From contig JBBDRZ010000001.1 of NCBI GenBank assembly GCA_040905185.1, forward strand, positions 115,254 through 179,253: a stretch of DNA of 64,000 bases, read 5' to 3'. Shown in pieces: positions 1,199 through 35,836 of the stretch. The translations under genes were made by a program, and so were the position numbers. Source of the stretch: Chloroflexota bacterium (lineage in GTDB: Bacteria > Chloroflexota > Limnocylindria > QHBO01). The notes beneath the pieces are model-generated. The model saw only the letters and a program-made list of their open reading frames with translations. It searched no databases and had not been told where the DNA came from. The first letter of the stretch is position 1. Each line of letters begins with the position of its first letter.

Positions 1199-1200
1199 CG

Positions 1201-2214: not shown

Positions 2215-2215
2215 C

Positions 2216-3202
2216 ATGGCCGAGCTGAACATCCTGGAGGCCATCCGGCGGGCAATGGACGAGGAGCTGGCTGCCGACGAGCGGGTCATGGTCCTTGGCG
2301 AGGACGTGGGCCGCAAGGGTGGCGTCTTTGGCGCCACCGAGGGGCTGTGGGCCAAGTACGGGGACAAGCGCGTCCTCGATACGCCCCTCAGCGAGGGCCT
2401 CATCGCCGGCGCGGCCATGGGGGCCGCCCTGTACGGCCTGCGGCCCATCGCCGAGATGCAGTTCGCCGACTTCGTGTATCCCGGCTTCAACCAGATCGTG
2501 AGCGAGATCGCGCGGATGCGGTTCCGGTCGAACGGTGCGTTTGGGGTACCGATGGTCATCCGCATGCCGTACGGCGGCGGGGTCCACGGCGCGCTGTACC
2601 ACAGCCAGTCGAACGAGGGCTACTTCACCGCGACGGTGGGCCTGAAGGTGGTCGCGCCGGGCACCCCTGCCGATGCCTACGGGATGCTGAAGGCCGCCAT
2701 CCGCGACCCCGATCCAGTCCTGTTCTTCGAGCACAAGAAGACGTATCGCTTATTCAAGGCGGAGGTGCCCGATGACGGTGACGGGCTGGTCCCCATTGGA
2801 CCGGCGGCGGTCGTGCGACCCGGGTCGGACCTGTCGATCTTCTGCTACGGCTACATGCGCTACTGCGCCCTCGAGGCGGCCGAGACGCTGGCCCGCGAGG
2901 GGGTGGAGGCCGAGGTGGTCGACCTGCGGACGCTGCGCCCGCTCGACACGGAGGCGGTGCTGGCCTCAGTGGAGCGCACCGGGCGGGCCCTGGTGGTGCA
3001 CGAGGCAAACCAATTCGGGGGCTTTGGGGGCGAGGTGGCGGCGATCATCGCCGAGCAGGGCTTCGAGCACCTGGACGCGCCGGTGACCCGCCTGGCCGGG
3101 CCCGAGGTGCCTGCCGTGCCGTACCACCACGACCTCGAGGAGTGGTTCATGGTCAACCCGGAGCGCATCGTCGAGGCGGCCCGGACGCTGGCCGCCTACT
3201 GA
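2216..3202 (+). CDS. 2-oxoacid dehydrogenase E1 beta subunit
   Basis: Internal ATG at 2216 (MAELNILEAIRRAMDEE...) inside the longer ORF 1982..3202, overlapping the E1alpha stop. Transketolase-like pyrimidine-binding and C-terminal domains. Confidence 0.85.
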   Translation: MAELNILEAIRRAMDEELAADERVMVLGEDVGRKGGVFGATEGLWAKYGDKRVLDTPLSEGLIAGAAMGAALYGLRPIAEMQFADFVYPGFNQIVSEIARMRFRSNGAFGVPMVIRMPYGGGVHGALYHSQSNEGYFTATVGLKVVAPGTPADAYGMLKAAIRDPDPVLFFEHKKTYRLFKAEVPDDGDGLVPIGPAAVVRPGSDLSIFCYGYMRYCALEAAETLAREGVEAEVVDLRTLRPLDTEAVLASVERTGRALVVHEANQFGGFGGEVAAIIAEQGFEHLDAPVTRLAGPEVPAVPYHHDLEEWFMVNPERIVEAARTLAAY

Positions 3203-3223
3203 ATCGGCTAGTCTTCTGCACCG

Positions 3224-4825: not shown

Positions 4826-5781
4826 GTCTGGGCTGGTCGCCTCCGTCGCCGGCGCGCGGCGAGCGGTTCCCCGCTCATGCGCCGCACGGCGGGGATCCAG
4901 GCCAACGCCCCAAGTGCCTGCACCGCGATCCATAGCAGGACGAGGAGCCCGGGCACGCCCACCACGGCGCCCGGCACGAACCAGACCAGCGGCGCATCCA
5001 GCAAGGCGAAGACATCGGTGCCGAGGCCAATCAATCCGGTATCCGCCCCGCTCAGTTCTGCGATCCGTCCGACGGAGGCCGCGCCGTCGGTTGGCGCAGA
5101 TGGACCTGCCGCCGCGACTGGCTGGGGCGTGGGGCTTGGGCGTGGCGTCGAGGTGGGCGCGGGTGTGGCGGTGGCCGTCGGGTCAGGGCGGGGAGTCAGG
5201 AGCGGCGGCAGCGTCGGGATCGGAGTGGAGAGGGGCGGGAGCGTCGGGATCGGTGTCGAGAGGGGCGGCAGCGTCGGGATTGGCGTTGGGACGGGCGTCG
5301 GTTCGAGCGCCGCCGCCACCACGACCGTCACCGGCGCCCCGTCGTAGGCAGTTCCCGTGCACTGATTGGTGACGTGGACGTGGTTGCTCCAGTTCCAAGT
5401 CCCCGCCTGGGTGGGCAGCAGCTGGATATCGAAGCTCACCGACTCCAGGGGATCGAGGAAGTCGATCCCGGATACGGAGGTGACCTCGACCCAGGCCCCG
5501 ACGACCGCGGCGACCCAGCTCGACCCGTCCGACGCCACCACGTTGCCGGCGGCCTGGATCACGAAGCTGCTGGGAATCTCGACGTTGACGCATCCGGCGG
5601 GAGGCCCGGCCAGGTTGAGGGCCAGCATGTGGAAGGTCGTGGACTGGCCCGCGGTGGCAACCAGTGGCGAGGCCGTGAGCGTCCACAGGCTCACCGCGCG
5701 GACGGCGCCTACCGTGCCGAGGGTCAGGATGGCGACCGCGAGCGCGGTCAGGACCCCCCGTCGCATGCTCACGGCATCCAC
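4822..5781 (-). CDS. hypothetical secreted/membrane-anchored protein with Pro/Thr-rich tandem repeats
   Basis: 319 aa with N-terminal signal-like segment and a C-terminal hydrophobic helix followed by RRRRRR. Three TPIPTLPPLS repeats. Start overlaps the upstream GGDEF/HD-GYP gene by 13 nt. Confidence 0.5.
   Translation of the reverse strand: MDAVSMRRGVLTALAVAILTLGTVGAVRAVSLWTLTASPLVATAGQSTTFHMLALNLAGPPAGCVNVEIPSSFVIQAAGNVVASDGSSWVAAVVGAWVEVTSVSGIDFLDPLESVSFDIQLLPTQAGTWNWSNHVHVTNQCTGTAYDGAPVTVVVAAALEPTPVPTPIPTLPPLSTPIPTLPPLSTPIPTLPPLLTPRPDPTATATPAPTSTPRPSPTPQPVAAAGPSAPTDGAASVGRIAELSGADTGLIGLGTDVFALLDAPLVWFVPGAVVGVPGLLVLLWIAVQALGALAWIPAVRRMSGEPLAARRRRRRPAQT
5200..5290. repeat. 30-bp tandem repeat x about 3 (cggNgtNgagaggggcggNagcgtcgggat) inside CDS 4822..5781
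   Basis: Direct inspection of lines 5161-5290. Encodes the TPIPTLPPLS repeats on the minus strand. Confidence 0.7.
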
Positions 5782-7619
5782 AGGGCGGGACGCCAGATAC
5801 CGGGCGCTCGGTCGGCCGGCAACGGCGCGTCTGGAGCCGTCTCCATCCCCGTGATGAATGCGACCACGAGGTCCTCTTCGAGCTGCCGGCCCGCGGCATC
5901 ACCCAGCCGCTTGAGCGCCTCCTCGACCGGCAGCGCCTTGCGGTACGGGCGGCTGGTGGTCATGGCCGAGAAGGCATCGGCCACCGCCAGGATGCGCCCG
6001 ATGACGGGAATCGCTTCGCCTTCCAGGCCGTCAAGATAGCCACGACCATCCCAACGCTCGTGGTGGTGCCGGATCCCGGCACGAACCAGGTCGACGTTCG
6101 GGATATCTCGGACGATGGCATCGCCCAGGGCTACATGCTGCTGGAAGATGCGCACCTCGTCCGCGGTCAGCCGACTGGGCTTGCGGAGGAGGTGATCGGG
6201 AATCCCGATCTTGCCCACGTCGTGGAGCAGACCCGCGAGCTGGATCGTGCGCCGCAGGTCCGGATTGAGGCCCAGCCGGCCGGCAAGGAAGACGGCATAG
6301 CGGGCCACGTCCTCGGAGTGACGCTTGGTGTATCGGTCCTTGGAGTCGACCGCGATGATCAGGCCCTGCAGCACATCAAAGCTGCCCGACACGATCTTCT
6401 CCTGCTCGTCGCTGATGGACGCGACGCATACCGCATCCCCACCGCTGGTCCGGGCTTCGCCGACGGCCACCGCCACCGCCGACAGGAGCCCGGTGACCGA
6501 ATCGGCGTGGTTGGGGTACAGGCAGACGCCGGCACTGACGGTGACCGGAAGCTGCTCCGAGTTCCCGAACTGGACGCTGACATCAGCCAGCGCCGATCGG
6601 ATGCGGTTCACGGCGGCCTCGACCTCGGCGCTCGCCGCGCCGGGGAGGACGAGAAGGAACTCATCCGGGCCGTAACGGGCGACCGCATCGTCGCCTCCCG
6701 CCTCGGACTCGACCAGGTCGGCCACCCGCAGCAGGACCTCATCGGCCGCCTCGTGGCCGTGGGTGTCGTTGAAGAGCCGGAAGTTGTCAATGTCGATCAG
6801 CGCCACGCCGAACCGGCCGGCGCCTGCCCGGGCCGCCTCCACCGCCTCGGCCAGGAGGTTGACCACCGCGCCGTGATTCAGCAGGCCGGTCAATGGGTCA
6901 CGCCGCTCGGCATCGATCAGCTCGGCCTGTTGCCGGGTGATCCGCCGCTGGGCGGCGCGGAATACGCCGAACAGGATCAACGCCAGGACCAGCGCCGCGC
7001 CAAGGGTCACGAGGACGATGTCCCGCCGGGCGGCCTCGAGGCTGGCCATCAGCGGAGCGGCATCTCGCCACATCGCGATCACGGCGAGGGGCTCGCCGGC
7101 GTCCGACGTGAGCGGCAGGTACTCCTGGACCACCTGCTCGGCGCCAAACCCGGCCGAACCGGCGTCCATGGCTTCGTTGCCGGGGAGGACATTCACCGCC
7201 GGCTGTCCATTGAGCGCCATCTGCATGGAGGCCGATACGTCTGGCTTATCTCCACGCACACCGGCGGCGGTGCTGGCCAGGATCGTGCCGTCGGTCGCGC
7301 GCAGGTCGATCCGGAGGATCTCGTCTTCGGCAATGAGGGTCGCCAGCTTGGCCTCGAGCGCGGCGGCCGAGGCCCGGGTTGGTCCATCGCTGTCGACGTC
7401 TTCCTGGCTGACGTTGCCGTTGACGAACAGCGCGACCAACGCCCGATCACGGGCCACTGCAGCATTGACCGTCGCACTCGACAGGTGGGTGCCGGTGACG
7501 GTCACCAGGGCGGTGGCGGTGACGCCGACGAGCACCAGGAACACGCCGTAGACGAGTGCCAGCAGCATCGGTCGACGTGGGGTACCCGATCGGCGGCGGG
7601 GCAGGCGCGGGTGCCACAT
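5769..7619 (-). CDS. membrane sensor protein with degenerate GGDEF (GPDEF) domain fused to an HD-GYP-type phosphodiesterase domain
   Basis: 616 aa. N-terminal TM plus periplasmic-like region; GGDEF-fold segment RDPLTGLLNH...ARYGPDEFLLVL; HD-GYP segment LLHDVGKIGIP...HHERWDGRGYLDGL. Confidence 0.8.
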   Translation of the reverse strand: MWHPRLPRRRSGTPRRPMLLALVYGVFLVLVGVTATALVTVTGTHLSSATVNAAVARDRALVALFVNGNVSQEDVDSDGPTRASAAALEAKLATLIAEDEILRIDLRATDGTILASTAAGVRGDKPDVSASMQMALNGQPAVNVLPGNEAMDAGSAGFGAEQVVQEYLPLTSDAGEPLAVIAMWRDAAPLMASLEAARRDIVLVTLGAALVLALILFGVFRAAQRRITRQQAELIDAERRDPLTGLLNHGAVVNLLAEAVEAARAGAGRFGVALIDIDNFRLFNDTHGHEAADEVLLRVADLVESEAGGDDAVARYGPDEFLLVLPGAASAEVEAAVNRIRSALADVSVQFGNSEQLPVTVSAGVCLYPNHADSVTGLLSAVAVAVGEARTSGGDAVCVASISDEQEKIVSGSFDVLQGLIIAVDSKDRYTKRHSEDVARYAVFLAGRLGLNPDLRRTIQLAGLLHDVGKIGIPDHLLRKPSRLTADEVRIFQQHVALGDAIVRDIPNVDLVRAGIRHHHERWDGRGYLDGLEGEAIPVIGRILAVADAFSAMTTSRPYRKALPVEEALKRLGDAAGRQLEEDLVVAFITGMETAPDAPLPADRAPGIWRPALWMP

Positions 7620-24155: not shown

Positions 24156-24209
24156 GGGGCTACTTGGCGCGCCGCCGGTGGGCACACGGTGCTGTAATAC
24201 GCGGAACCA

Positions 24210-26267
24210 ATGAGTAGCCGACGACCGCTCGAACCGCCCACCGGATCGAGCGGCTCTCAGGTCGATCCCATGCTCGAGGTGCGCGAGCGGCGCCGCGGCC
24301 AGCGGCCGGGCGACGCCTACGTGCGGATCGTGCGCCCGTTCGAAGACGAATTCGAGCACGGAGACGAAGGTCAGCTCATCGCCTCCGAGAAAACGCTTGG
24401 GCCCGCCCGCGGGTGGAGCGCGACATGGCGCCGTCTCCGCCACGTCCTGGTCGGGCGGCCGATCAGCTCCGAGCACGAGGAGCACGAGCGACTCACGAAG
24501 ACCAAGGCCCTGGCCATCTTCAGCTCCGACAACATCAGCTCCAGCGCCTACGGCCCAGAGGAGATCATGCGGGTCCTGGCCCTTGCCGGCGCCGGGGCAC
24601 TCACACTGACCATCCCGCTGGCGGGCCTGATCATCGTCACCCTGGCCATCGTGACGATGTCGTATCGGCAGACGATCAAGGCCTACCCGCACGGCGCCAG
24701 CAGCTACATCGTCGCCAGCGACAACCTCGGCGATCGAGCCGGGATCACCGCCGCGTCGGCCCTGCTCATCGGCTATGTCGTCACGGTGGCGGTTTCGATT
24801 TCAGCCGGCGTCGCGGCCATGACCTCCATCCTGCCCGACTTGTACGACACGCGCGTCGTCATTGCGGTCCTCATGGTCGGGCTCCTGATGCTGGGCAACC
24901 TGCGTGGCATCCGAGAGTCGGGGACGATCTTCATGGCGCCGACCTACCTGTACCTGGCGGTCATGTTCGGCATCGTCGGCCTTGGCGTCGTTCAGGCCGC
25001 GACCGGCCAACTGGCGGCTTACGCACCGCCGGCCGACTGGGTCGGGGCTATCGAACCACCGGCCCAGATCCTCGGGTTGTTCCTCATCCTGCGCGCGTTC
25101 TCGCAGGGGGCGGTGGCGTTGACCGGCGTGGAGGCCATCTCGGACGGCGTGCCCGCCTTCAAGCCGCCGGAATGGCGCAATGCGCGGACCACGTTGACCA
25201 CGGCCACCATCATCTTCGGACTCCTGTTCATGGGGATCGCGTTTCTCATCACCCAGCTGGGCATCGTGCCTGACCCGACCGAGCAGCAGACCGTCCTGAG
25301 CGTTCTCGTGCGTCACCTGGTCGGAAGCGGCTGGATCCTGGTCCTGGCCCAGGTGTCCACCGCGTTGCTCCTGGTCCTGGCGGCCAACACGAGCTTTGCG
25401 GACTTCCCCCGACTCTCCTCGTTCCTCGCCCGAGACGGATTCATGCCCCGCCAGTTCGCCTTCCGCGGCGAGCGGCTGGCGTTCACGACCGGCATCTTCG
25501 CGCTGTCGGCCATGGCCGCCTTTCTGATCGTCGTGTTCTCGGCAAGCGTGACCGGACTGATTCCGCTGTATACGCTGGGCGTCTTCGTGGCCTTTACGCT
25601 GTCCCAGGCCGGGATGTTCGTGCGCTGGTATCGGCGCCGCGAGACCGGATGGAGGTTCGGCCTCCCCATTAACGGGCTGGGGGCGGCAACCACGGCCGTC
25701 GTGGCGCTGGTCGTCGGGTCGAGCAACTTCTTCCAGGGTGCTTGGATGGTGCTCGTCCTCGTGCCTGCTCTCATGTTCGTGCTGTGGGCCATTAGGGCCC
25801 ATTACCAGGCCCACGACCGATCCGTCCTGATCGAGAGCATCCCCGAGGGGGCCGAGGCGGCCCGGGAGCCGATCGTCATCGTCCCCATCGCCCGTCTCGA
25901 CCGGCCCGCGCTGGCGGCCATCGCCTTTGCCAACTCCATCAGTCGCTCCGCGAGCGCGGTTCATGTCACGAACGATCCCGCCGCGGCCGAGGAGATGCGG
26001 CGGCGCTGGCCGGAATGGGCCGGCAAGACCGAGCTGGTCGTGGTCGAATCGCCGTATCGGGCCTTGATCGGGCCGCTGGTCCGCTACATGGACGCGCTAC
26101 AGGCCCAGGCTCCGGATCGACCGATCATGGTCGTCCTGTCAGAAGTGGTCCCCCGCCACTGGTGGGAGAACCTGCTCCACAACCAGACCAGCCTGCGCCT
26201 CAAGCTGCGCCTGTTCGGACGCAAGAACACCATCGTGGCCGACGTGCCGTATCACCGCCCCGACTAG
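24210..26267 (+). CDS. APC-superfamily permease with extended cytoplasmic C-terminal domain
   Basis: 685 aa with about 12 predicted TM helices. N-terminal SSDNISSSAYGPEE motif typical of this APC subfamily. C-terminal soluble domain of about 180 aa. Confidence 0.8.
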   Translation: MSSRRPLEPPTGSSGSQVDPMLEVRERRRGQRPGDAYVRIVRPFEDEFEHGDEGQLIASEKTLGPARGWSATWRRLRHVLVGRPISSEHEEHERLTKTKALAIFSSDNISSSAYGPEEIMRVLALAGAGALTLTIPLAGLIIVTLAIVTMSYRQTIKAYPHGASSYIVASDNLGDRAGITAASALLIGYVVTVAVSISAGVAAMTSILPDLYDTRVVIAVLMVGLLMLGNLRGIRESGTIFMAPTYLYLAVMFGIVGLGVVQAATGQLAAYAPPADWVGAIEPPAQILGLFLILRAFSQGAVALTGVEAISDGVPAFKPPEWRNARTTLTTATIIFGLLFMGIAFLITQLGIVPDPTEQQTVLSVLVRHLVGSGWILVLAQVSTALLLVLAANTSFADFPRLSSFLARDGFMPRQFAFRGERLAFTTGIFALSAMAAFLIVVFSASVTGLIPLYTLGVFVAFTLSQAGMFVRWYRRRETGWRFGLPINGLGAATTAVVALVVGSSNFFQGAWMVLVLVPALMFVLWAIRAHYQAHDRSVLIESIPEGAEAAREPIVIVPIARLDRPALAAIAFANSISRSASAVHVTNDPAAAEEMRRRWPEWAGKTELVVVESPYRALIGPLVRYMDALQAQAPDRPIMVVLSEVVPRHWWENLLHNQTSLRLKLRLFGRKNTIVADVPYHRPD

Positions 26268-26740
26268 GGCAGCGATTCGTCCATCGGTTCGAGCCGGAAG
26301 TAGACGCCGCGCGCCAGGATGTGGCGGCGCGCTGCCCGGTACACGAGGTTGCCGGGGAACGGCTGTTGGTGGGCGGTGGCCAGGATGACGGCGTCCCGCT
26401 CGTCCCCGTCCGCCAGGCCCTCGGCGCGCACCCGATGGCTGATCCCGCTCGGCCTGGCCACCACGGCCTCGCCGGCCGCGGCCAGGTTCCGGGTCCATCC
26501 CACTTCCCCGTTGGGGTGGCCAACGTACCAGCGTCCCCCCACCTCGATCAGGCCCACCAGGACGGCGCGAGGGCGCCGCGTGCGCCGTCCGAGGACGCGC
26601 AGGTCGATCGTGATCCCCATCCCGCCAGCGCGCCACGCCCTTCGGATCAGCGGATCGGTGAGGCGAAGCCAGGCATAGCCCAAGCGCCAGAGCACGCTCC
26701 AGATGCGGGAGGCACGTCGTGCTGGACGGGAGGCTGTCAT
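26264..26740 (-). CDS. DUF385 nitroreductase-family deazaflavin (F420)-dependent oxidoreductase-like protein
   Basis: Internal ATG at 26740 (MTASRP...) within track ORF 26264..26818. GRRTRRPRAVLVGLIEVGGRWYVGHPNGEVGWTRNLAAAGEAVV...ERD matches the Ddn/DUF385 split-barrel pattern. Confidence 0.65.
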   Translation of the reverse strand: MTASRPARRASRIWSVLWRLGYAWLRLTDPLIRRAWRAGGMGITIDLRVLGRRTRRPRAVLVGLIEVGGRWYVGHPNGEVGWTRNLAAAGEAVVARPSGISHRVRAEGLADGDERDAVILATAHQQPFPGNLVYRAARRHILARGVYFRLEPMDESLP

Positions 26741-26756
26741 GGAGCGGGCCTCGAGA

Positions 26757-26832
26757 TGGCGCGCCGGGCAGGATTCGAACCCGCGGCCTGGTGGTCCGAA
26801 GCCACCCGCTCTATCCACTGAGCTACCGGCGC
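26757..26832 (-). tRNA. tRNA-Arg (anticodon TCG)
   Basis: Manual cloverleaf: acceptor GCGCCGG/CCGGCGC, D arm GCTC..GAGC, anticodon stem GGTGG/CCACC with loop CTTCGGA, T loop TTCGAAT, discriminator G plus encoded CCA. 76 nt. Confidence 0.8.
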
Positions 26833-26942
26833 ACGATTCACGCTCAAATAGAGCGTAAAAGTCGATGGAGGCTTGACTACAGCGCTGGGAGAGCGTAAAA
26901 CCTGACGCGTCTTCGGAAACCCGTCACGAGGCCTCTCCGGCG

Positions 26943-27887
26943 ATGCGATCTGCCTCCACCGCGCCCATCCTAACCCGCGGCGACCTGGCCGCCAACATCA
27001 CGAGCTACGCCCGCCATCTGCGGGCCGCCAACCTGACGCCGGCCACGCAGCGGACCTATCTGGCGTCTCTGGACCGGCTGGCCCGCTTCCTCGAGGAGCG
27101 CGGGATGCCGACCGACGTCGCCGCCATGCGCCGCGAGCACCTGGAGGCCTTCATCGAGGACCAGCTCGCCCGCTGGAAGCCGGCCACCGCCGCCAACCGC
27201 TACAGCGGCATCCGGCCGTTCTTCACCTGGCTCGTCGAGGAGGGCGAGCTGCGCGAGAGTCCGATGATCCACATGCGCAAGCCGCGCCTGCCCGAGCAGG
27301 CACCCCCGATCCCGTCGGACATCGCCGTCGAGCGCCTGCTGGCTACCTGTGAGGGACCCGGCCTCGCCGCCCGCCGCGACGCGGCTATCCTCCGGACGTT
27401 CCTCGCCACCGGGGCGCGTCTATCCGAGGTCGCCGGTCTGCGCTGGACGCCTGACCCGGCAACCAACGACGTCGACCTGGACGCTGGCGTCATCCGCATC
27501 GTTCGCGGCAAGGGCCAGCGCGAGCGGATCAGCTACCTCTCCGCGAAGGCAGTCAAGGCGATCGACCGCTACCTCCGGGTGCGCCGGACCCACGCCCACG
27601 CCGCATTGCCGTGGCTGTGGCTCGGCGAGAAGGGCCGGCTCACCGCTTCGGGCATCGTGCAGATGCTCAAGCGTCGCTCCCGCGATGCGGGCGTCACCGG
27701 GGTCCACCCGCACTCGTTCCGCCACTGGTACGCCAACGAGGCCCTATCGTCCGGGCTCCAGGAAGGCGAGATCATGGCCCTGGCCGGGTGGACGAGCCGG
27801 GAGATGCTGAGCCGCTACGCGAAGGCTGCCGAGCGCGAGCGGGCGGTCGCCGCCGCGCGACGGGTCAACGTCGGGGATCGTCTGTAA
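26943..27887 (+). CDS. tyrosine-type site-specific recombinase/integrase
   Basis: 314 aa. N-terminal SAM-like domain plus catalytic domain with ARLSEVAGLRW, HSFRHWYA and LSRYAKA (R..HxxR..Y). Confidence 0.85.
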   Translation: MRSASTAPILTRGDLAANITSYARHLRAANLTPATQRTYLASLDRLARFLEERGMPTDVAAMRREHLEAFIEDQLARWKPATAANRYSGIRPFFTWLVEEGELRESPMIHMRKPRLPEQAPPIPSDIAVERLLATCEGPGLAARRDAAILRTFLATGARLSEVAGLRWTPDPATNDVDLDAGVIRIVRGKGQRERISYLSAKAVKAIDRYLRVRRTHAHAALPWLWLGEKGRLTASGIVQMLKRRSRDAGVTGVHPHSFRHWYANEALSSGLQEGEIMALAGWTSREMLSRYAKAAERERAVAAARRVNVGDRL

Positions 27888-28002
27888 CTTCGTCGAGCAG
27901 CTCGGGGTGGCGCCCTCCCGGGAGCACGGACGACTCTGGAGCTCCCCAAAACCCCCAGACTCGTCGAGAACGCGAGAGGTCCAGGGGTGTAGTGTGGTTT
28001 CC

Positions 28003-29211
28003 ATGATTCAACTGCGAACGACTCCCCGCCGTTTCACCGGGGCGGTGGCTGGCGTGGCGTTGCTGCTGGCGGCCAGCGGATGCAGTGCCGCATCGCCATC
28101 GGCCATCTCGAGCAATGCGGCGAGTGCCATCCCTCACGAGTCGTCTTCAGCATCATCGACTCCGGTCGAGAGTACGGCGCCCGTGTGGACCACGACCGGG
28201 AACATGATCGAGGCCCCTGTCGCCAACACCGCGACGCTGCTGTCCGATGGCAGTGTGCTGGTGGCGGGCGGCATCACCATCAGGAGCGGCGAAAGGTTCC
28301 CGGCCTCCGCGCAGTTGTACGACCCCAGCAGCCGGTCCTGGAGCGCCACCGGAAACATGATCGAGTTTTCCCGCTCCGATTACACGGCCACGCTGCTGCG
28401 CGATGGCAAGGTGCTCGTGGCGGGCGGCTACCCCAGCCCACTGGCCTCCGCCGAGCTGTACGACCCCAGCACCGGGTCGTGGACCGCCACCGGCAGGCTG
28501 GTAACGGCCCGCGACCTTCATACGGCCACGCTGCTGCCCGATGGCAAGGTGCTCGTGACGGGCGGCATCGATAGCACCGTGTCCGTGGGCCACGCTGTCG
28601 CCGCCGCCGAGCTGTACGACCCAGCCAGCGGGACCTGGATTCCCACCGGGAACATGGTCCAAGCCCGCGTCTACGACACGGCCACGCTGCTGCTCGACGG
28701 CAGGGTGCTGGTGGCGGGCGGCAGCAGCAGTGGCACCCTCGGCGAGGCGCTGGCCTCCGCCGAGTTGTACGACCCGGCCAGTGGGACCTGGACCGCCAGC
28801 GGGAACATGAACGCGGGCCGGAGCGGTCACACGGCCACGCTCCTCCCCGACGGCACGGTGCTGGTGGTGGGCGGCAGCAACGGCAGCGGCCTACTGGCCC
28901 CTGCCGAGCTGTACGACCCAAGCAGCGGGTCCTGGACCGCCACCGGGGCGATGGTCGAGCCCCGCTACGGTCACACGGCCACGCTGCTGGCCAACAGCAA
29001 GGTACTGGTGGTGGGCGGCAGCGCCGGCCAGGACGCGCTGGCCTCCGCCGAGCTGTACGACCCGCTCAGCGGGTCGTGGACCGCCATCGGGAGCATGACC
29101 GCGGGCCGCAGCGGTCACACGGCCACGCTGCTGGCTGATGGCACGGTGCTGGTGGCGGGCGGGAGCACGCGGGTCGCGGCCGAGCTATACAACCCGGGCA
29201 GCGGGACCTGA
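28003..29211 (+). CDS. Kelch-repeat beta-propeller lipoprotein
   Basis: Start at ATG 28003 (MIQLRTTPRRFTGAVAGVALLLAASGC, lipobox-like). At least seven repeats of ELYDPxSGxWTxTGxMxxxRxxHTATLLxDGxVLVxGG. Confidence 0.75.
   Translation: MIQLRTTPRRFTGAVAGVALLLAASGCSAASPSAISSNAASAIPHESSSASSTPVESTAPVWTTTGNMIEAPVANTATLLSDGSVLVAGGITIRSGERFPASAQLYDPSSRSWSATGNMIEFSRSDYTATLLRDGKVLVAGGYPSPLASAELYDPSTGSWTATGRLVTARDLHTATLLPDGKVLVTGGIDSTVSVGHAVAAAELYDPASGTWIPTGNMVQARVYDTATLLLDGRVLVAGGSSSGTLGEALASAELYDPASGTWTASGNMNAGRSGHTATLLPDGTVLVVGGSNGSGLLAPAELYDPSSGSWTATGAMVEPRYGHTATLLANSKVLVVGGSAGQDALASAELYDPLSGSWTAIGSMTAGRSGHTATLLADGTVLVAGGSTRVAAELYNPGSGT
28440..29200 (+). repeat. intragenic tandem repeats of about 147 bp (Kelch blades; gccgagctgtacgaccc... 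recurring)
   Basis: gccgagctgtacgaccc recurs at about 28454, 28607, 28757, 28901, 29048 and 29177. Confidence 0.7.
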
Positions 29212-29380
29212 TATGCGGCTACCAGCCCAGAACTGACCAACTGGAGTCTGTACGGCAAGGTTCGCAATCGGTCTGACATGGGCTGCCGCGAATGACGACG
29301 CGCAGGAGCCTCCCGACAGCGGAAAACCCGACAGGTTTCGCTCGGCACCCCACGCTCGAGGCACAGCGCTCGGGGGTTTC

Positions 29381-29421
29381 TGGTCCGAAGCCACCCGCTC
29401 TATCCACTGAGCTACCGGCGC
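29381..29421 (-). repeat. partial tRNA-Arg copy (positions 1-41), putative att site
   Basis: Exact 41-bp match to 26792-26832. No T arm or acceptor 3' strand follows. Confidence 0.75.
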
Positions 29422-29446
29422 CGGGGCCGATTGTACCGGCGCCCGC

Positions 29447-29875
29447 TCACCACAGGGCCAGGCCGAACTCCTCGTCTAAGGTCCGAACCAGGTCCACGCC
29501 GAGCAGCTCGCGGATCTCGAACTCGGCCACGAAGACCTCGATCCCCCGCAGCAGGTGCCCGCCCACGCACGCCCCGTGCTCATCGGCGAAGGTGGCGTGC
29601 GCGTGGAGGAATGGCTTCCCATCGCGCAGGCTGACATTGCCGATAAAGCCCACGATCTCGTGGTGGGTGTCGGAGGACAGCTCGAGATACCTCAGGTCAC
29701 GTTGGTGGTAGTACGCGTATGCCGCCTTCCGAACCGCGCCGATGACGCTGACCCAGGCTGCCGACACGCCCCGCTCATCGCAGATGCGCTCGATCTCGGC
29801 GACGAGGTCGCTCCCCTTCTCCAATCGACCGATGAACGTCCGGCCCGCGGAGGCCTCCCAGGTGCGCTCGGTCAT
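29447..29875 (-). CDS. PPC (DUF296) domain-containing protein
   Basis: 142 aa. RTFIGRLEKGSDLVAEI...VIGAVRKAAYAYY...GFIGNVSLRDGKPFLHAHATFADEHGACVGGHLLRGIEVF matches the PPC/DUF296 pattern. Confidence 0.7.
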   Translation of the reverse strand: MTERTWEASAGRTFIGRLEKGSDLVAEIERICDERGVSAAWVSVIGAVRKAAYAYYHQRDLRYLELSSDTHHEIVGFIGNVSLRDGKPFLHAHATFADEHGACVGGHLLRGIEVFVAEFEIRELLGVDLVRTLDEEFGLALW

Positions 29876-29886
29876 CGGTCTGTCTC

Positions 29887-32421
29887 CTACTCGAAGTGCT
29901 TCAGGCTGGCCAGGACAGGCCGATTGCCGGCCAGCCGCGCCGGGTACAGCCCGGCCAGGCAGGCGACGCCCAATCCGAGCAGGACCACCGCGATCACCAG
30001 CGGCCAGGGGATGAGCAGCCCGGCGGCGAAATCCCGGGGAGCGAGGGTGACGAGCACGCCGGTGACGGCGACCCCGCCGACGGCGGCCACGATGCCGCCC
30101 ACCGTGCCCATGATCGCAGCCTCGGTCACGACCATGCCTTCGACCTGGCCAACGGTCATGCCGTGGGCCCGAAGCACGGCAATCTCGCGCGTCCGCTCGG
30201 CCACGCCCAGGCTCAGCGTGTTGACGATCCCTAACCCGCCGATGACGACGGCCAGCAGGGCCAGGGCGTCGAACAGCCCGAGCAGGCGATCCAATGACCG
30301 CGCCAGCTGCTCGGCCAGCACACCGGCCGTCAGCGCTTCACCGGCCAGTTGGGCAGCCTTTTCGGCCACCAACACCCCATAGGCTGCCTCCCCGATCGCG
30401 GGCTGGGGAACCATGGCCCACATGGTCGCCGTCTCGGCGCCGAACGTGGCCCGCGCATCTGCCAGGCTGATCAGCAACGCTCCCTCGCCGGATCGACCGG
30501 GGAGCGAGTAGGCGACCAGCCCGGCCACCGTCAGATCGGTGGCGGGGCCACCCGGGATGGCGAGGTGGATCAGATCGCCGGTGCGGAACCCCGTCTGGGT
30601 GGCGAATGACTCGGGGAGAAGAACCGCCCCGCCGCCGCGGAGGGCCTCGAACGCCGCGGCCCGGTCCGCCTCAACCACGATCAGGGCACCGGCGTCCTGC
30701 CAGACCGAAGGATCAATACCCGCGACGCCTGCCTCGCGATCACCCTCCGGAGTGGTGACCACTACGCCAAACTCGGGGACCGGGCTGGCCGAGAGCGTCC
30801 CAGGAGTGGCCTCGATCGTGTCCTGCAGGACGTCGATGGACGACGGAATGGTGAGCCGGATGGCGTGTCCCCCGGGGAGAATGGACTGGACCCAGCGCTC
30901 CGCCGTGCCCCGGGCCGAGGCGGCCGTCGTGCCCAAGGTGACCACCGCCGCCAGGGCCACCGTCAGGGCCGCCACGCTGAGCCCGGTCCGCGCCCGATGC
31001 CGGCCCAGGTTGGCGCGCCCCAGCAGCCCCTGGGCGCCGAACAGGCGCTCGAACGGCGCTCCGACCAGCCTCCCCAGCGGTTCCAGCATGAACGCGGTCG
31101 CGACCGCTCCGCCGATGAGCACCCCGACGGCCAGCAGGGTGGCCACGAGCGGTGGCGCGCCGCGTTCGAGTGGATAGAGGAGGAAACCGGCAGCCACCAC
31201 GGCCAGCTCGGCGGCGACGATCCAGCGCAGCCTGATCCAGAGGCTGCGCCCTGGTCGGTGCGTGGGACGAAGGGCCTCCAGAGGGCTGACCCGCGCGGCC
31301 TCCGCGGCCGGGACCCATGCCGCGAGCAGGGTGACGCCGAGCCCTAACCCGAACGAGAACGCGAGCACAGCCGGGCTCAGGGTCAGGTCCACCACCAACG
31401 CCGTTCGCGGGCCGGCAACGATGTTGACCAGGATCGCTCCAATGCCGATCCCGATCGGCAGCCCCAGCGCGGAACCCAGCAGCCCCAGCGCCAGCCCCTG
31501 GCGGATGACGAGGCCGCGCACCTGGCGGCCGGTGGTTCCTGCGGCTCGCAGCAGGCCGATCTCGCGGGTTCGCTCCGACAGGGTCATGGCCAAGGTGTTG
31601 GCGACCAGGAAGGCCCCGGCACTGAGCGCCACCAAACCGAGCAGGAAGGCGATGCCCGCGAACCCGGCTTGTGCGCGTGCGAAGGCGGCCTCCGCGTCGG
31701 CGACCGTCTCGACCACGAACGGCTCGGTCAGGTTCCGATCCAGGCCCGCTTCGACCTCGGCCATGCGGCCCTCGGCGACAGCCACGTCCACCGCCGTGAT
31801 GGGCGATGGGACCTCGAAGGCGGCATTCAGCGTGTCTCGGGCCACGAGCAGTACCGATCCCCCGGCCTGCGCCCCAAAGCCGCTGTTGGCCAGCAGGCCG
31901 ACGATGGTGAGGGGCGGGGTGTCGAGCCGCGCGCCGGTCAGCAGCAGCTCGTCGCCCAGGTCGAGGCGGTGATCGGCGGCCCACTGGGCGGCCACCAGGG
32001 CGCCGTTCGGGCGGTCGGCGTCCAGTGGCACGCCAGCCGTGAGGCTGGGACGGCCGAGGGCCGCCTCGGCCAACGGGTCGACGCCCACCGCGGAGAGCGT
32101 GAAGACCTGCTCATCGGGGCCCGGCTGGGTGGACAGGGTCAGGCGACGCTCGGCCAGCGGAGCGCTGATGGCGACCCCTGGGATCACTCGTATCGCCGCC
32201 ACGGATTCGGCGCGCAGTCCGTCGTGGTCGAAGGCTCGGATCCGCAGGTCCGCCTCGCCGTATAGATCCCGAGCGGCCTCGGCCACCGCCCGGGTGGCCG
32301 CATCGGCCGTCAGGAGGGTGCCGGCCACGAGCGCCACCCCGAGCGCGACGCCCATGCCGGTGAGCGCGGTTCGCGCCGGTCGGGCGGTCAGGCTCCTCCA
32401 GGCGATGGCGGACAGGCGCAT
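29887..32421 (-). CDS. MacB/FtsX-like ABC transporter permease (two FtsX domains)
   Basis: 844 aa. Two repeats of large extracytoplasmic domain plus 4-TM FtsX module. Adjacent to a MacB-like ATPase. Confidence 0.8.
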   Translation of the reverse strand: MRLSAIAWRSLTARPARTALTGMGVALGVALVAGTLLTADAATRAVAEAARDLYGEADLRIRAFDHDGLRAESVAAIRVIPGVAISAPLAERRLTLSTQPGPDEQVFTLSAVGVDPLAEAALGRPSLTAGVPLDADRPNGALVAAQWAADHRLDLGDELLLTGARLDTPPLTIVGLLANSGFGAQAGGSVLLVARDTLNAAFEVPSPITAVDVAVAEGRMAEVEAGLDRNLTEPFVVETVADAEAAFARAQAGFAGIAFLLGLVALSAGAFLVANTLAMTLSERTREIGLLRAAGTTGRQVRGLVIRQGLALGLLGSALGLPIGIGIGAILVNIVAGPRTALVVDLTLSPAVLAFSFGLGLGVTLLAAWVPAAEAARVSPLEALRPTHRPGRSLWIRLRWIVAAELAVVAAGFLLYPLERGAPPLVATLLAVGVLIGGAVATAFMLEPLGRLVGAPFERLFGAQGLLGRANLGRHRARTGLSVAALTVALAAVVTLGTTAASARGTAERWVQSILPGGHAIRLTIPSSIDVLQDTIEATPGTLSASPVPEFGVVVTTPEGDREAGVAGIDPSVWQDAGALIVVEADRAAAFEALRGGGAVLLPESFATQTGFRTGDLIHLAIPGGPATDLTVAGLVAYSLPGRSGEGALLISLADARATFGAETATMWAMVPQPAIGEAAYGVLVAEKAAQLAGEALTAGVLAEQLARSLDRLLGLFDALALLAVVIGGLGIVNTLSLGVAERTREIAVLRAHGMTVGQVEGMVVTEAAIMGTVGGIVAAVGGVAVTGVLVTLAPRDFAAGLLIPWPLVIAVVLLGLGVACLAGLYPARLAGNRPVLASLKHFE

Positions 32422-32443
32422 GCGCTCGGCGGCTCGGATCGGC

Positions 32444-33190
32444 TCAGAGGCCGAGCAGGGCCAGGCGGGTCAGGAGCTCACCCGGGTCGTGGTCGGGCCG
32501 GCGCCCCAGCTCGATCTGGTCCAGGATCTGCCCGTCGCGCACCACCAGCACGCGGTCCGCATACGCCGCCGCGCGAGCTTCGTGGGTCACCAGCACGATG
32601 GTCTGGCCCAGTTGCACGCAGGAGCGCCACAGCAGATCGAGGATCTCGCCGCCGCTCGTGTAATCCAGGTTGCCGGTGGGTTCGTCCGCCAGCAGGAGGG
32701 CCGGCTCGGTGGCCAGCGCGCGGGCCAGGGCCACCCGTTGCTGCTCCCCGGCCGATAGCTGATCGGGCGCGTGATCGGCCTTGCCTTCCAGGCCGACCAT
32801 GGCCAGCAGGTCATCCACGCGCTGGCGGCGCTCATGCACCGACTCTCCGCGGATCAGGAACGGGAGGGCCACGTTTTCGCGCACCGTCAGCAGCGGGATG
32901 AGGTTGAAGAACTGAAACACGAAACCGGTCTTGTCGCGCCGGGTCAGCGTCGCCTGCTCATCGTCGAGGGTGCTGATGTTCACGCCGTCAATGACGACCT
33001 GGCCCGCGGTGGGCTTGTCGAGGCCGCCGAGCAGGTGGAGGAGGGTGGACTTGCCCGATCCGGAGGCTCCCATGATGGCCACGAACTCTCCGCGCTCCAC
33101 CGCCAGGCTGACCCCGCGCAGGGCGTCGACCTGGCCATCCCCGACCGGGTAGCGCTTGACGAGGTCTTGGGCCTCCAGGATGACCGTCAT
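32444..33190 (-). CDS. ABC transporter ATP-binding protein (MacB/LolD-like)
   Basis: Walker A GASGSGKST, signature LSAGEQQRVALARAL, Walker B LLLADEPT. Confidence 0.85.
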   Translation of the reverse strand: MTVILEAQDLVKRYPVGDGQVDALRGVSLAVERGEFVAIMGASGSGKSTLLHLLGGLDKPTAGQVVIDGVNISTLDDEQATLTRRDKTGFVFQFFNLIPLLTVRENVALPFLIRGESVHERRQRVDDLLAMVGLEGKADHAPDQLSAGEQQRVALARALATEPALLLADEPTGNLDYTSGGEILDLLWRSCVQLGQTIVLVTHEARAAAYADRVLVVRDGQILDQIELGRRPDHDPGELLTRLALLGL

Positions 33191-33231
33191 CGGGCGAAAG
33201 GATACGGGGCCGGGGCGAGCCGGGGAGCGGG

Positions 33232-34155
33232 TCAGCCGAAGACGAACCCGATCAAGGCTCCCAGGAGTGTCTCGAATACGCCCTGGTCGGCGGGACCAGC
33301 AGCCTCGACCCGCAGACTGGCGACGGCCGGCGGCAGGATCGGCGCGCCGCGCGTGTCGAGGCCGGCCAAGGCCCGCTTCGGGACATTCGGCGCCCCCACG
33401 TGAACCAGGCTGCCGCTTCCGTCGAGGGGTTCAGCCGAAGTAGGGCGCACGGGGGCCGGCACGATGAGGGGAGGGAGCGTTGGCGCCGGGGCCGGCTGGT
33501 AGGCAACGCCGCCACCGCCACCGCCACCGCCACCGCCACCGCCCCCACCGCCCCCACCCCCTCCCCCACTGGGCGGCGGTGGAGGAGCCGAGCCCGCGGC
33601 AGCCATGAAGAGCTCGGTGTACACCCGCGGGCTGCGGAGCGATCCGAGGAACTGGACGTTGTCGGCAGCCCAGGCTCCGACTCCACCATGGGTCCAACTG
33701 GTACCCAGGATGTTGGCGCGGTGGCCAGGAGAGTTCATGAAGCCGTTGTGCGCGGCCACCGGGGAGTCGGCGTCCGAGTAGCCGTTGTTCCAGGCGATGT
33801 TCTCGCCGCCCAGGGTGTAGCTCAGCCCGTTCTGGTCATACCAGTGGTAGACCTGGTAGCCGGTGCCCAGGATGGTGTGGCTGAAATAGTTGCGCTCGAT
33901 CATGTCCTGGCTTCGCCAACGAGCAATTGATACCAGGGTGCCGTGCTGGACCAGCACGTTGAGCCCGTTGTTGGCGCGAGCGCCGTTCAGCAGCTGCCAC
34001 AGGGTCGCCTCCGCGCTCGCCTGGTCCCAGGCACTGGCTGTCGCCGGACCCGACCAGACCAGGAGCGCAGCGGCCATCAGGGCCGTGCCCGCAAGCCCTG
34101 TAGCGCGGAGGAGGACGTTCGGTTGACGCCGAATCGAGACAGGCGCTGAGCGCAT
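33232..34155 (-). CDS. secreted CAP (SCP/PR-1, YkwD-like) domain protein with poly-glycine tract and Pro-rich C-terminus
   Basis: Signal peptide. CAP motifs NYFSHT, GENIAW, MNSPGHRANIL. A run of 22 Gly follows. Confidence 0.7.
   Translation of the reverse strand: MRSAPVSIRRQPNVLLRATGLAGTALMAAALLVWSGPATASAWDQASAEATLWQLLNGARANNGLNVLVQHGTLVSIARWRSQDMIERNYFSHTILGTGYQVYHWYDQNGLSYTLGGENIAWNNGYSDADSPVAAHNGFMNSPGHRANILGTSWTHGGVGAWAADNVQFLGSLRSPRVYTELFMAAAGSAPPPPPSGGGGGGGGGGGGGGGGGGGGVAYQPAPAPTLPPLIVPAPVRPTSAEPLDGSGSLVHVGAPNVPKRALAGLDTRGAPILPPAVASLRVEAAGPADQGVFETLLGALIGFVFG
33509..33570. repeat. GGN/GCCACC trinucleotide simple-sequence repeat encoding poly-Gly
   Basis: Plus strand (gccacc)n then gcccccacc units at 33509-33570. 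Confidence 0.7.
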
Positions 34156-34311
34156 GCGATAGCACCCCTGGATCGGTCCGCCTTCGTGACGGACGTACCA
34201 GAAGGCTACGGTGGCCCAGGGCCACGGTCAGTAGCGCGGTCGTCCCGGCTCGGGCCGGGACCATCAGGTCTCTAGGCCCTGACTGTCGCCGGGCCGTGGT
34301 CGGGGAGTGCG

Positions 34312-34677
34312 TCAGGTGGGGCGCACGACCACGGTTCCGGCGATCTTGTCGTGCCAACCCTGCTTGCGGCGGTCGAACGCGATCCAGATCACGCCCAGGA
34401 ACAGGATCACGATGCTGATGATCAGCCCGACGTAGCGGAGCAGCGAGCGGACGATGTCGACCTTGCCGCCATCGGCAGCCAGCACGATCCGCATGTTGAA
34501 CGGAATCATCCCCGGGCTCTGGCCACGCCAGGTCCAGAAGCCGACGAAATAGACGAGGTCGATGAGGAGGCCGATGGCGTTGGTGGTGTAGTTGAAGACA
34601 AACCCGTCGTTGTCGAAGGTCACAGCGCTGCCGCCTCCGATGAGCGGGGCAACCGCGGCGGTGAGCACCCCGAGCAC
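34312..34677 (-). CDS. RDD family membrane protein
   Basis: 121 aa, GTG start. DRRKQGWHDKIAGTVVV RDD motif. Two TM helices. Confidence 0.6.
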   Translation of the reverse strand: MLGVLTAAVAPLIGGGSAVTFDNDGFVFNYTTNAIGLLIDLVYFVGFWTWRGQSPGMIPFNMRIVLAADGGKVDIVRSLLRYVGLIISIVILFLGVIWIAFDRRKQGWHDKIAGTVVVRPT

Positions 34678-34694
34678 GATGGCGTCCAGGATGA

Positions 34695-34980
34695 AGGCAA
34701 CGAGGCGGACCCAGAAGCCGGCGTATCGGAGGCCCTGGGCGGGCCGCCAGGAATGTCTCCCGCGCCTTCGCTGAGGTACTCCAGCGGGCCGGGCTACCGA
34801 GGATCAGGTTTCACGATCTCCGACACTCGGCGGCGACGCTCATGCTGGCTCAGGGGGTCGATCCACGGACAATCATGGAGACGTTGGGGCACTCGCAGAT
34901 CGGTACAACGCTGAACATCTACGCCCACGTTCTGCCCGCGATGCAGCGGGACGCGGCGGATCGGATCGGGCCGCCCTGTT
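34695..34980 (+). pseudogene. 3' remnant of a tyrosine integrase gene (catalytic box II only)
   Basis: Frame translation gives ...AFAEVLQRAGLPRIRFHDLRHSAATLMLAQGVDPRTIMETLGHSQIGTTLNIYAHVLPAMQRDAADRIG with the HxLRH and catalytic Tyr boxes. No N-terminal or core domain upstream (a stop sits at 34692, and the minus-strand RDD gene lies beyond it). Confidence 0.55.
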
Positions 34981-35000
34981 CGGGGGTTAGGACGGGGCTA

Positions 35001-35582
35001 TCAGTAGCGGAGCAGCGTCATCACCGCACCGACGCGGTTGAACATGAGCAGCCCGATCGGCAAGGTGATGATGATCACGCACAGTAACCACGCGACGCCG
35101 AGGTAAATGGCTCCCACCCACCAGCCGACGAAGACGAACCAAAGGGCACGTGCCCACAGTGGGTACTGCTCGACGGTCCCGCCGGTGACGTACGTGACCC
35201 CGTCCCGGATCTCAATCGTGTGCGAGTCCGTCCGCGGCCTCAGGGTGAGAATTACGGGCAGTCGGTTGAAGATCATGAAACCAAGCGGCAGGCCGATGAT
35301 GATGACGCACAGAAAGTACGCAGCGACGATCGCGAGTCCGCTTAGCCACCAGCCGACAAAGATGAACCAAATCGTGCGCACAAAGAACCCCGGACCGGTG
35401 GACCGCTGAATGATGACAACGTTTTGGCTGACATTGACGGTCGGTGGAGCGGTCGGACTGACCGGTGGCGCAGGCGATGGTGAGGTCGGAACGGTGAGCG
35501 GGTCCGGCATCGCTCCGGGCAGCGTCACGTCGGGCGGCTGGATTCCACCCTGGTCCTCCGGGACCCTAGGTTGGTCGGACAT
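35001..35582 (-). CDS. YccF-like (DUF307) inner membrane protein, duplicated domain
   Basis: Two copies of FIFVGWWLSGLAIVAAYFLCVIIIGLPLGFMIFNRLP-like modules. Pro-rich N-terminus. Start proposed at ATG 35582. Confidence 0.6.
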   Translation of the reverse strand: MSDQPRVPEDQGGIQPPDVTLPGAMPDPLTVPTSPSPAPPVSPTAPPTVNVSQNVVIIQRSTGPGFFVRTIWFIFVGWWLSGLAIVAAYFLCVIIIGLPLGFMIFNRLPVILTLRPRTDSHTIEIRDGVTYVTGGTVEQYPLWARALWFVFVGWWVGAIYLGVAWLLCVIIITLPIGLLMFNRVGAVMTLLRY

Positions 35583-35759
35583 GGCACCTGCCCTCCCCAC
35601 CACCAAGCGCAGGCGCCGACCCATTCAGGGCCGGCCCGCGCAGGCTCGAGTTTAGCCACTCCACCGCCCGCAAATCCCTGTGGCTGTCAATTTGGCTGTC
35701 AACCGACCGAATGTTCCCGGCGTGGGCACCTACCGCGAGCAATTTCGTGCTCAAAATGG

Positions 35760-35836
35760 TGGGGTGGCCTACGGGGCTTGAACCCGTAACCTTCGGAGCC
35801 ACAATCCGATGCTCTGCCAGTTGAGCTAAGGCCACC
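35760..35836 (-). tRNA. tRNA-His (anticodon GTG) with encoded G-1
   Basis: Manual fold: G-1, acceptor GTGGCCT/AGGCCAC, anticodon stem TCGGA/TCCGA with loop TTGTGGC, T arm ACGGG-TTCAAGC-CCCGT, discriminator C plus CCA. Confidence 0.85.

Follow-up and report, generated by a model that had tools for sequence, protein, structure and literature searches.

We analysed a 64-kb stretch of DNA (~70% GC) from a Candidatus Limnocylindria bacterium of the phylum Chloroflexota, hereafter the window, and within it the interval from position 26757 to position 35836, which is bracketed by a tRNA-Arg(TCG) gene and a tRNA-His(GTG) gene. Between these tRNAs lie a small integrase-bearing element with a Kelch lipoprotein gene, genes for a PCC protein, a MacB-like exporter, a secreted CAP-domain protein and an RDD-family membrane protein, the tail of a second tyrosine integrase, and a YccF-family gene. 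An initial annotation had listed all of these features, and each was recovered by ARAGORN, Rfam or Pfam; it had also read the interval as a ~9-kb accessory island produced by serial insertions. Our analysis leads to a different interpretation. The interval is very probably core chromosome, in which the two bracketing tRNAs are attachment sites used by tyrosine-recombinase elements of different families. Integration has recurred at both tRNAs in relatives, which marks them as hotspots.

Genes were called from GC content by codon position together with Pfam matches, and tRNAs were called with ARAGORN and Rfam. ARAGORN called exactly two tRNAs, both on the minus strand, and an Rfam search of 24-38 kb returned no RNA families besides tRNA-Arg and tRNA-His. 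For synteny, 34 related loci were retrieved with the MacB-like permease from a one-genome-per-species search, and 24 window proteins and all tRNAs were mapped onto them. All 34 loci derive from Candidatus Limnocylindria or Chloroflexota metagenome-assembled genomes (MAGs), a few of which bear obviously wrong bin labels. Loci L002 and L019 were used as empty-site references for blastn of the window. The window aligned to them over 24177-26832, over 29381-34743 and from 35759 onward, and only two pieces were specific to the window: 26833-29380 (2,548 bp) at tRNA-Arg and 34744-35758 (1,015 bp) at tRNA-His. A 41-nt segment of L002 (13015-13055) was matched twice by the window.

The first piece is an intact 2.5-kb mini-element, consisting of an integrase gene and a Kelch lipoprotein gene, at the 5′ half of tRNA-Arg(TCG). 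The intact tRNA gene (26757-26832, minus strand; Rfam 68.8 bits) has the same sequence as the tRNA in empty-site relatives. Its positions 1-41, which span the 5′ half through the anticodon loop, form one copy of a perfect 41-nt direct repeat (26792-26832, minus strand), which constitutes the att core at the integrase end. The second copy (29381-29421, minus strand; repeat family D15, blastn E = 6e-18) is the displaced native 5′ half of the tRNA: homology to L002 and L019 resumes exactly at 29381, and this orphan retains the native TACAAT upstream region (29422-29446) seen in both references. The intact tRNA-Arg is instead preceded by element-type sequence, ...TTTGAGCGTGAATCGT, with the motif GAGCGTGAA in place of the native TACAAT promoter region. 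The same upstream motif precedes element-type half copies in L004, L005, L006, L021, L040 and L049, and the tRNA-Arg site is empty in L002, L007, L009, L019 and L025. A repeat drawn from the 5′ part of the tRNA, an orphan with native upstream sequence, an intact gene with element upstream sequence, empty sites in relatives and a two-domain 314-aa integrase beside the att core together describe an element of reversed target orientation, integrated at the 5′ part of the tRNA.

The integrase gene (26943-27887, plus strand) encodes a full-length XerC/D-like tyrosine integrase with a Phage_integrase domain (Pfam, 1.7e-23) and N-terminal SAM-like domains, and is divergent from tRNA-Arg. Its metagenome relatives at 72-85% identity (L040, L049) occupy the same divergent position on the 5′ side of tRNA-Arg(tcg). 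More distant ones, at 39-46% identity (L022, L044, L048), follow the 3′ ends of tRNA-His, tRNA-Arg(tct) and tRNA-Lys and so have the classical orientation. Alignment to relatives shows that the region upstream of tRNA-Arg (26833-26942) is derived from the element. Between the integrase gene and the tRNA, at 26833-26902, the reverse-complement strand carries TTTTACGCTCT twice, ~40 bp apart, and related units have TTTCCGCT-like motifs at either end. Both motifs are candidate arm-binding sites for the integrase, and 26833-26942 probably holds such arm sites along with promoters for the tRNA and the integrase gene. At the far end of the mini-element (29212-29380), the reverse complement reads GAAACCCCCGAGCGCTGTGCC..GAGCGTGG....GGGTTTTCCGCTGTC, and these motifs are conserved beside the displaced half copies in L021, L004, L028 and L032. 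Scans of viral contigs for both mini-element end motifs returned no matches.

The cargo gene (27907-29211, plus strand; Pfam Kelch families down to 1e-46) encodes a Kelch beta-propeller lipoprotein. Translation likely begins at a Met near 28000 (MIQLRTT...), ahead of a lipobox-like LLAASGCS. From 28186 to 29210 the gene is made up of seven tandem units of 132-156 nt with 61-89% identity (repeat families D1-D4), and this repetition exaggerates how far the mini-element deviates in tetranucleotide usage (p = 0.044). Kelch homologs at 55-62% identity hold the same site in L016 and L021.

The mode of integration can be read from this arrangement. The attP site of the element bears tRNA positions 1-41 preceded by its own upstream region, and recombined with the 5′ half of tRNA-Arg(TCG), presumably by crossover in the anticodon loop. 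Because the element carries both a tRNA 5′ half and an upstream region, the working tRNA-Arg is now a chimera, with an element-borne 5′ half and upstream region (26792-26832 and upstream) joined to the native 3′ half. The tRNA promoter would thus be supplied by the element, and the native promoter and 5′ half have been left stranded as the orphan at 29381-29446.

Relatives use the same site repeatedly. Tandem small units occur ahead of tRNA-Arg(TCG), each with a copy of positions 1-41 of the tRNA and conserved end motifs as its borders (GAAACCCC.AGCGCTGTGGC...GAGTTTTCCGCT at one end, CCATTCCGCTCAGT.TGAGCGTGAA at the opposite end), at L004 13883-17604, L021 1588-3064, L032 17965-21474, L028 13016, L005 15716 and L006 14965. 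Two to three 5′-half copies are present in L004, L021 and L032; in L005 and L006 the upstream region is of the element type, and the orphan copy has not survived. The units measure 1.4-3.4 kb and contain one to three genes; an integrase is missing from most of them. Their cargo includes secreted beta-propeller lipoproteins, extracytoplasmic function (ECF) sigma factors paired with anti-sigma-like proteins, ABC-2 transporter genes and a beta-lactamase-like protein. In L021 a Kelch gene stands alone between two half copies; in L004 three half copies set a 446-aa secreted protein apart from an ECF-sigma and beta-propeller pair; and the L032 array encodes an ECF sigma factor, a 387-aa protein and the beta-lactamase-like protein.

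As a tentative hypothesis, the 5′ half of tRNA-Arg(TCG) could act as a gene-capture platform in Limnocylindria. In that case a sub-clade of XerC/D-like integrases would have switched from the 3′ to the 5′ half of tRNAs and would stack small units in tandem, each one replacing the promoter and 5′ half of the tRNA. Most units would be moved in trans, and the integrase and Kelch genes of the window would represent the autonomous member of the family. Such capture units would be loosely analogous to integron cassettes or to cis-mobilizable elements (CIMEs). We consider this 5′-half-targeting tRNA-Arg family, with its integrase-less arrays, to be the most interesting by-product of the analysis.

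The DNA between the two window-specific pieces (29381-34743, ~5.4 kb) is an ancestral, vertically inherited block of core genes and is not mobile. All of its genes are on the minus strand. The PCC/DUF296 gene (29447-29875) is followed by the gene for an 844-aa MacB-like permease (29887-32421; Pfam FtsX 9.5e-34, MacB_PCD 4e-12) and by that for an ABC ATPase (32444-33190; ABC_tran 7e-37), and this adjoining FtsX/MacB_PCD permease and ATPase are, from their Pfam domains, predicted to form a MacB-type ABC exporter pair (29887-33190). The secreted CAP-domain protein (33232-34155) and the 5′-truncated RDD gene (34312-~34745), both assigned by Pfam, complete the block. A GCCACC-type simple repeat at 33499-33569 gives the CAP protein a linker with a run of ~22 glycines plus prolines; because the similar poly-Gly tract of L022 differs slightly in length, linker length may be variable among relatives.

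In related loci the order ABC-2 permease, tRNA-His, RDD, CAP, ABC ATPase, MacB, PCC, tRNA-Arg, nitroreductase-like protein, amino-acid permease recurs. It is seen in L002 (86% MacB identity) and in L019, L007, L025, L004, L005 and L006 (70-79%), and it is found without RDD in the more distant L009, L011 and L032 (54-56%). The block thus occupies one and the same position in this class of soil and freshwater Chloroflexota. PCC, MacB, ATPase and CAP keep one order in ~30 related Limnocylindria loci, and the gap from PCC to tRNA-Arg is 29-51 bp in L002, L007, L009 and L019. L002 and L009 hold the whole block between both tRNAs without integrase, Kelch or YccF. Composition agrees with native DNA: the tetranucleotide distance of the core block (29422-34745; GC 0.704) is 0.129, and the controls average 0.127 (p = 0.41). 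The MacB/CAP/PCC operon should therefore be annotated as native Limnocylindria biology and not as horizontally acquired cargo.

It might be argued that the block from PCC to RDD was itself an island, gained before Limnocylindria diversified and since fixed and ameliorated, with the tRNAs as its ancient att boundaries. The block is indeed bracketed by two tRNAs that are both demonstrably used as att sites, and RDD is missing in the more distant clade. We nevertheless regard such an origin as improbable. There is no compositional signal, no relative ties att repeats or an integrase to the block, and the integrase fragment near tRNA-His cannot be its footprint, being absent from relatives and lying within foreign DNA. 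An ancient island would also explain nothing beyond what vertical inheritance explains.

The second window-specific piece (34744-35758) is the debris of another element, unrelated to the first, which had integrated in the classical manner at the 3′ half of tRNA-His(GTG). The tRNA-His gene (35760-35835, minus strand; Rfam 66.4 bits) has an encoded CCA and is the attB for 3′-half integration. Alignment to L002 shows that window-specific DNA starts right after this CCA, and blastn against L001, L002, L019 and L022 placed the breakpoints at 35759/35760 in four pairwise comparisons. From tRNA-His onward the remnant consists of a 135-bp island-derived spacer beside attL (35625-35759), an apparently intact gene for a YccF-family small membrane protein (35001-35624, minus strand; Pfam 4e-11) and an integrase tail of ~80 codons, after which homology to relatives resumes at ~34745 within RDD, at ...PAQGLRYAGFW. 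The GC content of 34746-35759 is 0.633 against 0.699 +/- 0.022 in control windows, none of which is as low, and its tetranucleotide distance of 0.385 exceeds that of every control window (0.280 +/- 0.032). GC at third codon positions is 0.79 in YccF and 0.87-0.95 in neighbouring genes. Homologs of YccF and of the integrase fragment were absent from the 34 related loci, even at E <= 1. The initial annotation had described the footprint of an old island at the 3′ end of tRNA-His, and this holds true, since foreign DNA of low GC that is absent from relatives begins exactly there; it amounts to only ~1 kb.

The integrase fragment (34746-34990, plus strand) aligns to tyrosine recombinases, as the initial annotation had supposed, over positions 108-169 of 172 of the Phage_integrase profile (PF00589, E = 8.4e-17). 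It retains the C-terminal catalytic motifs H-x-x-R, second His and Tyr (HDLRH and ...LNIYAHV), in a plus-strand frame with the sequence RFHDLRHSAAT...GHSQIGTTLNIYAHV (...RNVSRAFAEVLQRAGLPRIRFHDLRHSAATLMLAQGVDPRTIMETLGHSQIGTTLNIYAHVLPAMQRDAADR...), and lacks box I and the N-terminal two thirds of the protein. Both retained boxes and the orientation toward the 3′ end of tRNA-His were correctly recognized at the outset, whereas the extent given then (34695-34980) needs revision: integrase homology begins at ~34746, and the sequence 5′ of it is RDD antisense. A frameshift near 34960-34969 hides the original stop codon (TAG, 34988-34990). Homologs at 81-88% identity end in ...AADRMDAVLFG*, and the window copy reads ...AADRI before continuing in another frame as AALFGG*. 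By these lesions the fragment is a pseudogene. In the best 120 homologs of window 34740-35084, lengths range from 78 to 201 aa; a systematic cause for such short tails was considered and rejected in favour of ordinary decay and fragmentary metagenome contigs, as the truncation points differ.

The RDD gene is damaged on the opposite side of the same junction. In L002 it starts ~17 nt past tRNA-His behind a GGAGGG Shine-Dalgarno-like motif (L002 7593-7610), and the full-length protein begins MAAAPPGPQPPPAGWAAAPEAPPGPAQGLRYAGFW..., of which the 26 extra N-terminal codons encode MAAAPPGPQPPPAGWAAAPEAPPGP.... In the window the start codon and ~26 codons are gone, and the first in-frame start (GTG, 34677) falls within the RDD domain. 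NCBI gene calls on the same sequence list no RDD product. The window copy is probably a pseudogene. At the junction (34744-34746; blastn ends at 34743, and integrase homology starts from ~34743-34749) a 5′-truncated integrase gene is thus fused head to head with a 5′-truncated RDD gene. A single deletion is the simplest reading. It would have removed the first two thirds of the integrase gene, whatever lay from the integrase to attR, attR itself, the 16-nt spacer and ~26 RDD codons. The attL-proximal spacer, the YccF cargo gene and the last ~80 integrase codons are the survivors, and a frameshift later struck the integrase tail. The remnant therefore offers a base-pair-resolved case of decay in a tRNA-linked element, in which one deletion apparently removed the integrase, attR and the start of a neighbouring host gene.

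Relatives establish tRNA-His as a true att site. L022, with 93% MacB identity, carries at 1022-6370 an intact 5.3-kb island at this tRNA, with a XerC/D-like 340-aa integrase beside tRNA-His, ~5 kb of cargo including a K+-channel-like protein, and a second tRNA 3′ half at the far end. The repeat is 37 nt; the far copy is canonical, and the copy inside tRNA-His has three element-derived changes. In L007 a second tRNA-His 3′ half survives in a 0.6-kb remnant. In L001, with 94% MacB identity, tRNA-His is fused directly to codon ~71 of RDD (5336-5344), and RDD is missing in L006, L009 and L022. RDD, a host gene beside the att site, is thus repeatedly eroded. Since it starts ~17 nt downstream of tRNA-His, each integration or sloppy deletion endangers it, and this closeness would account for its repeated erosion in relatives. 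The ~17-nt gap and the GGAGGG motif suggest that RDD is co-transcribed with tRNA-His in the empty-site L002. On the 5′ side of tRNA-His, toward the ABC-2 permease, several relatives carry an extra 1-2.8 kb (L005 4719-7522, L007 4126-6895, L019 4839-7544, and also L006, L008, L025 and L028), and the gap there is only ~40 bp in the window, L001, L002 and L004.

Several points weigh against the interpretation of the two insertions given above. No attR, that is, no second tRNA-His 3′ half, is present in the window: exact searches, searches with 2-3 mismatches, blastn-short and a fuzzy 37-mer search for a repeat of the tRNA-His 3′ end, by which the far boundary of an island was to be defined, returned only chance 10-15-mers within the 64 kb. 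The case for site-specific integration at tRNA-His is thus built on the exact boundary and on the relatives rather than on a repeat pair. No intact relative of the tRNA-His element with both this integrase family and YccF was found, and YccF homologs are common in unrelated contexts. An attempt to rebuild the ancestral element from YccF homologs was abandoned, as the closest ones on long contigs (59-74% identity) had no integrase or tRNA-His nearby. Mobility of the mini-element and promoter function of its upstream region are predictions. Finally, all data derive from MAGs, in which repeats may be mis-assembled, although at least two independent NCBI assemblies show the same arrangement.

The missing attR also lends some weight to the idea that the integrase tail and YccF are debris of an unrelated rearrangement, or of an illegitimate insertion into the spacer between tRNA-His and RDD. 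On long contigs, sequences homologous to the integrase fragment sit in junkyards rich in insertion sequence (IS) elements, introns and integrases, and not at tRNAs. In the three such contexts inspected, IS elements, group II introns and further integrases were abundant. We consider this origin unlikely. In four independent pairwise comparisons the foreign DNA starts at most 1 nt from the tRNA-His 3′ end, L022 and L007 prove that this tRNA is used as an att site, and the deletion that truncated both the integrase and RDD accounts for the lack of a tRNA-His repeat in the window, because it removed attR.

The picture of one tRNA-delimited accessory island spanning 26.7-35.8 kb and assembled by serial insertions, as initially annotated, fares worse and is in our judgement very unlikely. 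Its appeal is that the interval has a tRNA on either side, an integrase at one end and, near the opposite end, what is left of an integrase. The five central genes, however, are syntenic down to 54-57% MacB identity, including in genomes free of integrases. PCC, the permease, the ATPase and CAP, joined by RDD in the closer clade, keep their order between the same tRNAs in L002, L007, L009, L019 and L025 as MacB identity drops from 86% to 56%, and L002 and L009 have no integrase, Kelch or YccF there. The composition of the block, proposed as a check of the island, is native, and window-specific DNA is limited to 2.5 kb plus 1.0 kb. No direct repeat joins both ends of 26757-35836; the only tRNA-derived repeat is the 41 nt of tRNA-Arg, which bounds 2.5 kb. 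The two integrases are unrelated, because the mini-element integrase and the integrase tail share only 31% identity over 36 aa, and the possibility that both are copies of one element was rejected on this count. What had been taken for serial insertions is a pair of independent insertions at two att sites by unrelated integrases, neither nested nor serial. A pair of tRNAs with integrase debris does not turn all the intervening DNA into an island, and synteny assigns 60% of this interval to the core.

That the C-terminal integrase piece (80-120 aa) works on its own as a small protein, and is not a pseudogene, would fit the lengths of its best 120 database homologs (all <=201 aa, some on contigs >1 Mb) and the NCBI annotation of the window copy as a 120-aa 'site-specific integrase', but this is extremely improbable, given that the homologs are cut at differing points, to lengths of 78-200 aa, and begin at whatever start codon is at hand, and that the window copy has neither box I nor the N-terminal domains, is frameshifted ahead of its natural stop and has as its 5′ end a deletion junction inside another gene.

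Three loci of the synteny set carry Limnocylindria-type sequence and synteny, yet were deposited under other names: L001, L017 and L028 bear Pleomorphomonadaceae, Steroidobacteraceae and 'proteobacterium' MAG labels. These odd labels point to mis-binning or mislabelling. L028 further displays many frameshift-like breaks, in every gene.

Both insertions are known in kind, one as the decay of a tRNA-linked element and the other as rare targeting of a tRNA 5′ half, and they represent ordinary biology. Among known systems, SSV-type archaeal integrases carry attP inside the integrase gene, and integration splits that gene into N- and C-terminal fragments. A C-terminal-only integrase piece near a tRNA gene resembles one product of such a split. 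This explanation was rejected, as the fragment lies 770 bp from tRNA-His with YccF in between, its broken end abuts the truncated RDD and not the tRNA, and no N-terminal half is present.

CIMEs and tandem accretion at a single att site have been described for ICESt1 and ICESt3 of Streptococcus thermophilus. The arrays of L004, L021 and L032 are alike in that they consist of units with conserved ends and att-like repeats at their borders, the majority of them integrase-less, which lie beside or replace an integrase-bearing unit. The tRNA-Arg units differ in their small size (1.4-3.4 kb, one to three genes), in having no visible conjugation genes and in their target, the 5′ half of the tRNA, and their mobility is predicted.

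In classical tRNA-linked islands, according to PMC6563490, which cites Williams 2002, the integrase uses the 3′ part of the tRNA gene, and the att repeats duplicate the tRNA 3′ end. The tRNA-His remnant is of this kind, with foreign DNA that begins at the tRNA 3′ end, a tyrosine integrase and a cargo gene, and in L022 this tRNA carries such an island in intact form, with a 37-nt 3′-half repeat. The remnant in the window differs in that ~1 kb is left, attR and two thirds of the integrase gene are deleted, and what remains of that gene is frameshifted. Taken as a whole, the 9-kb interval falls outside this class.

Recombination at the 5′-distal part of tRNA genes is also known and, according to the same source (PMC6563490, citing Zhao & Williams 2002, J Bacteriol 184:859), is much rarer than that at the 3′ part. 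The mini-element at tRNA-Arg matches such reversed-orientation elements in its repeat of positions 1-41, in its orphan copy with native upstream sequence and in a functional tRNA whose 5′ half and upstream region come from the element. It differs in its Limnocylindria host, in its very small size, with an integrase and a single cargo gene, and in having relatives with integrase-less tandem units. The mini-element thus documents, at base-pair resolution, the rare targeting of a tRNA 5′ half in an uncultivated class of Chloroflexota.

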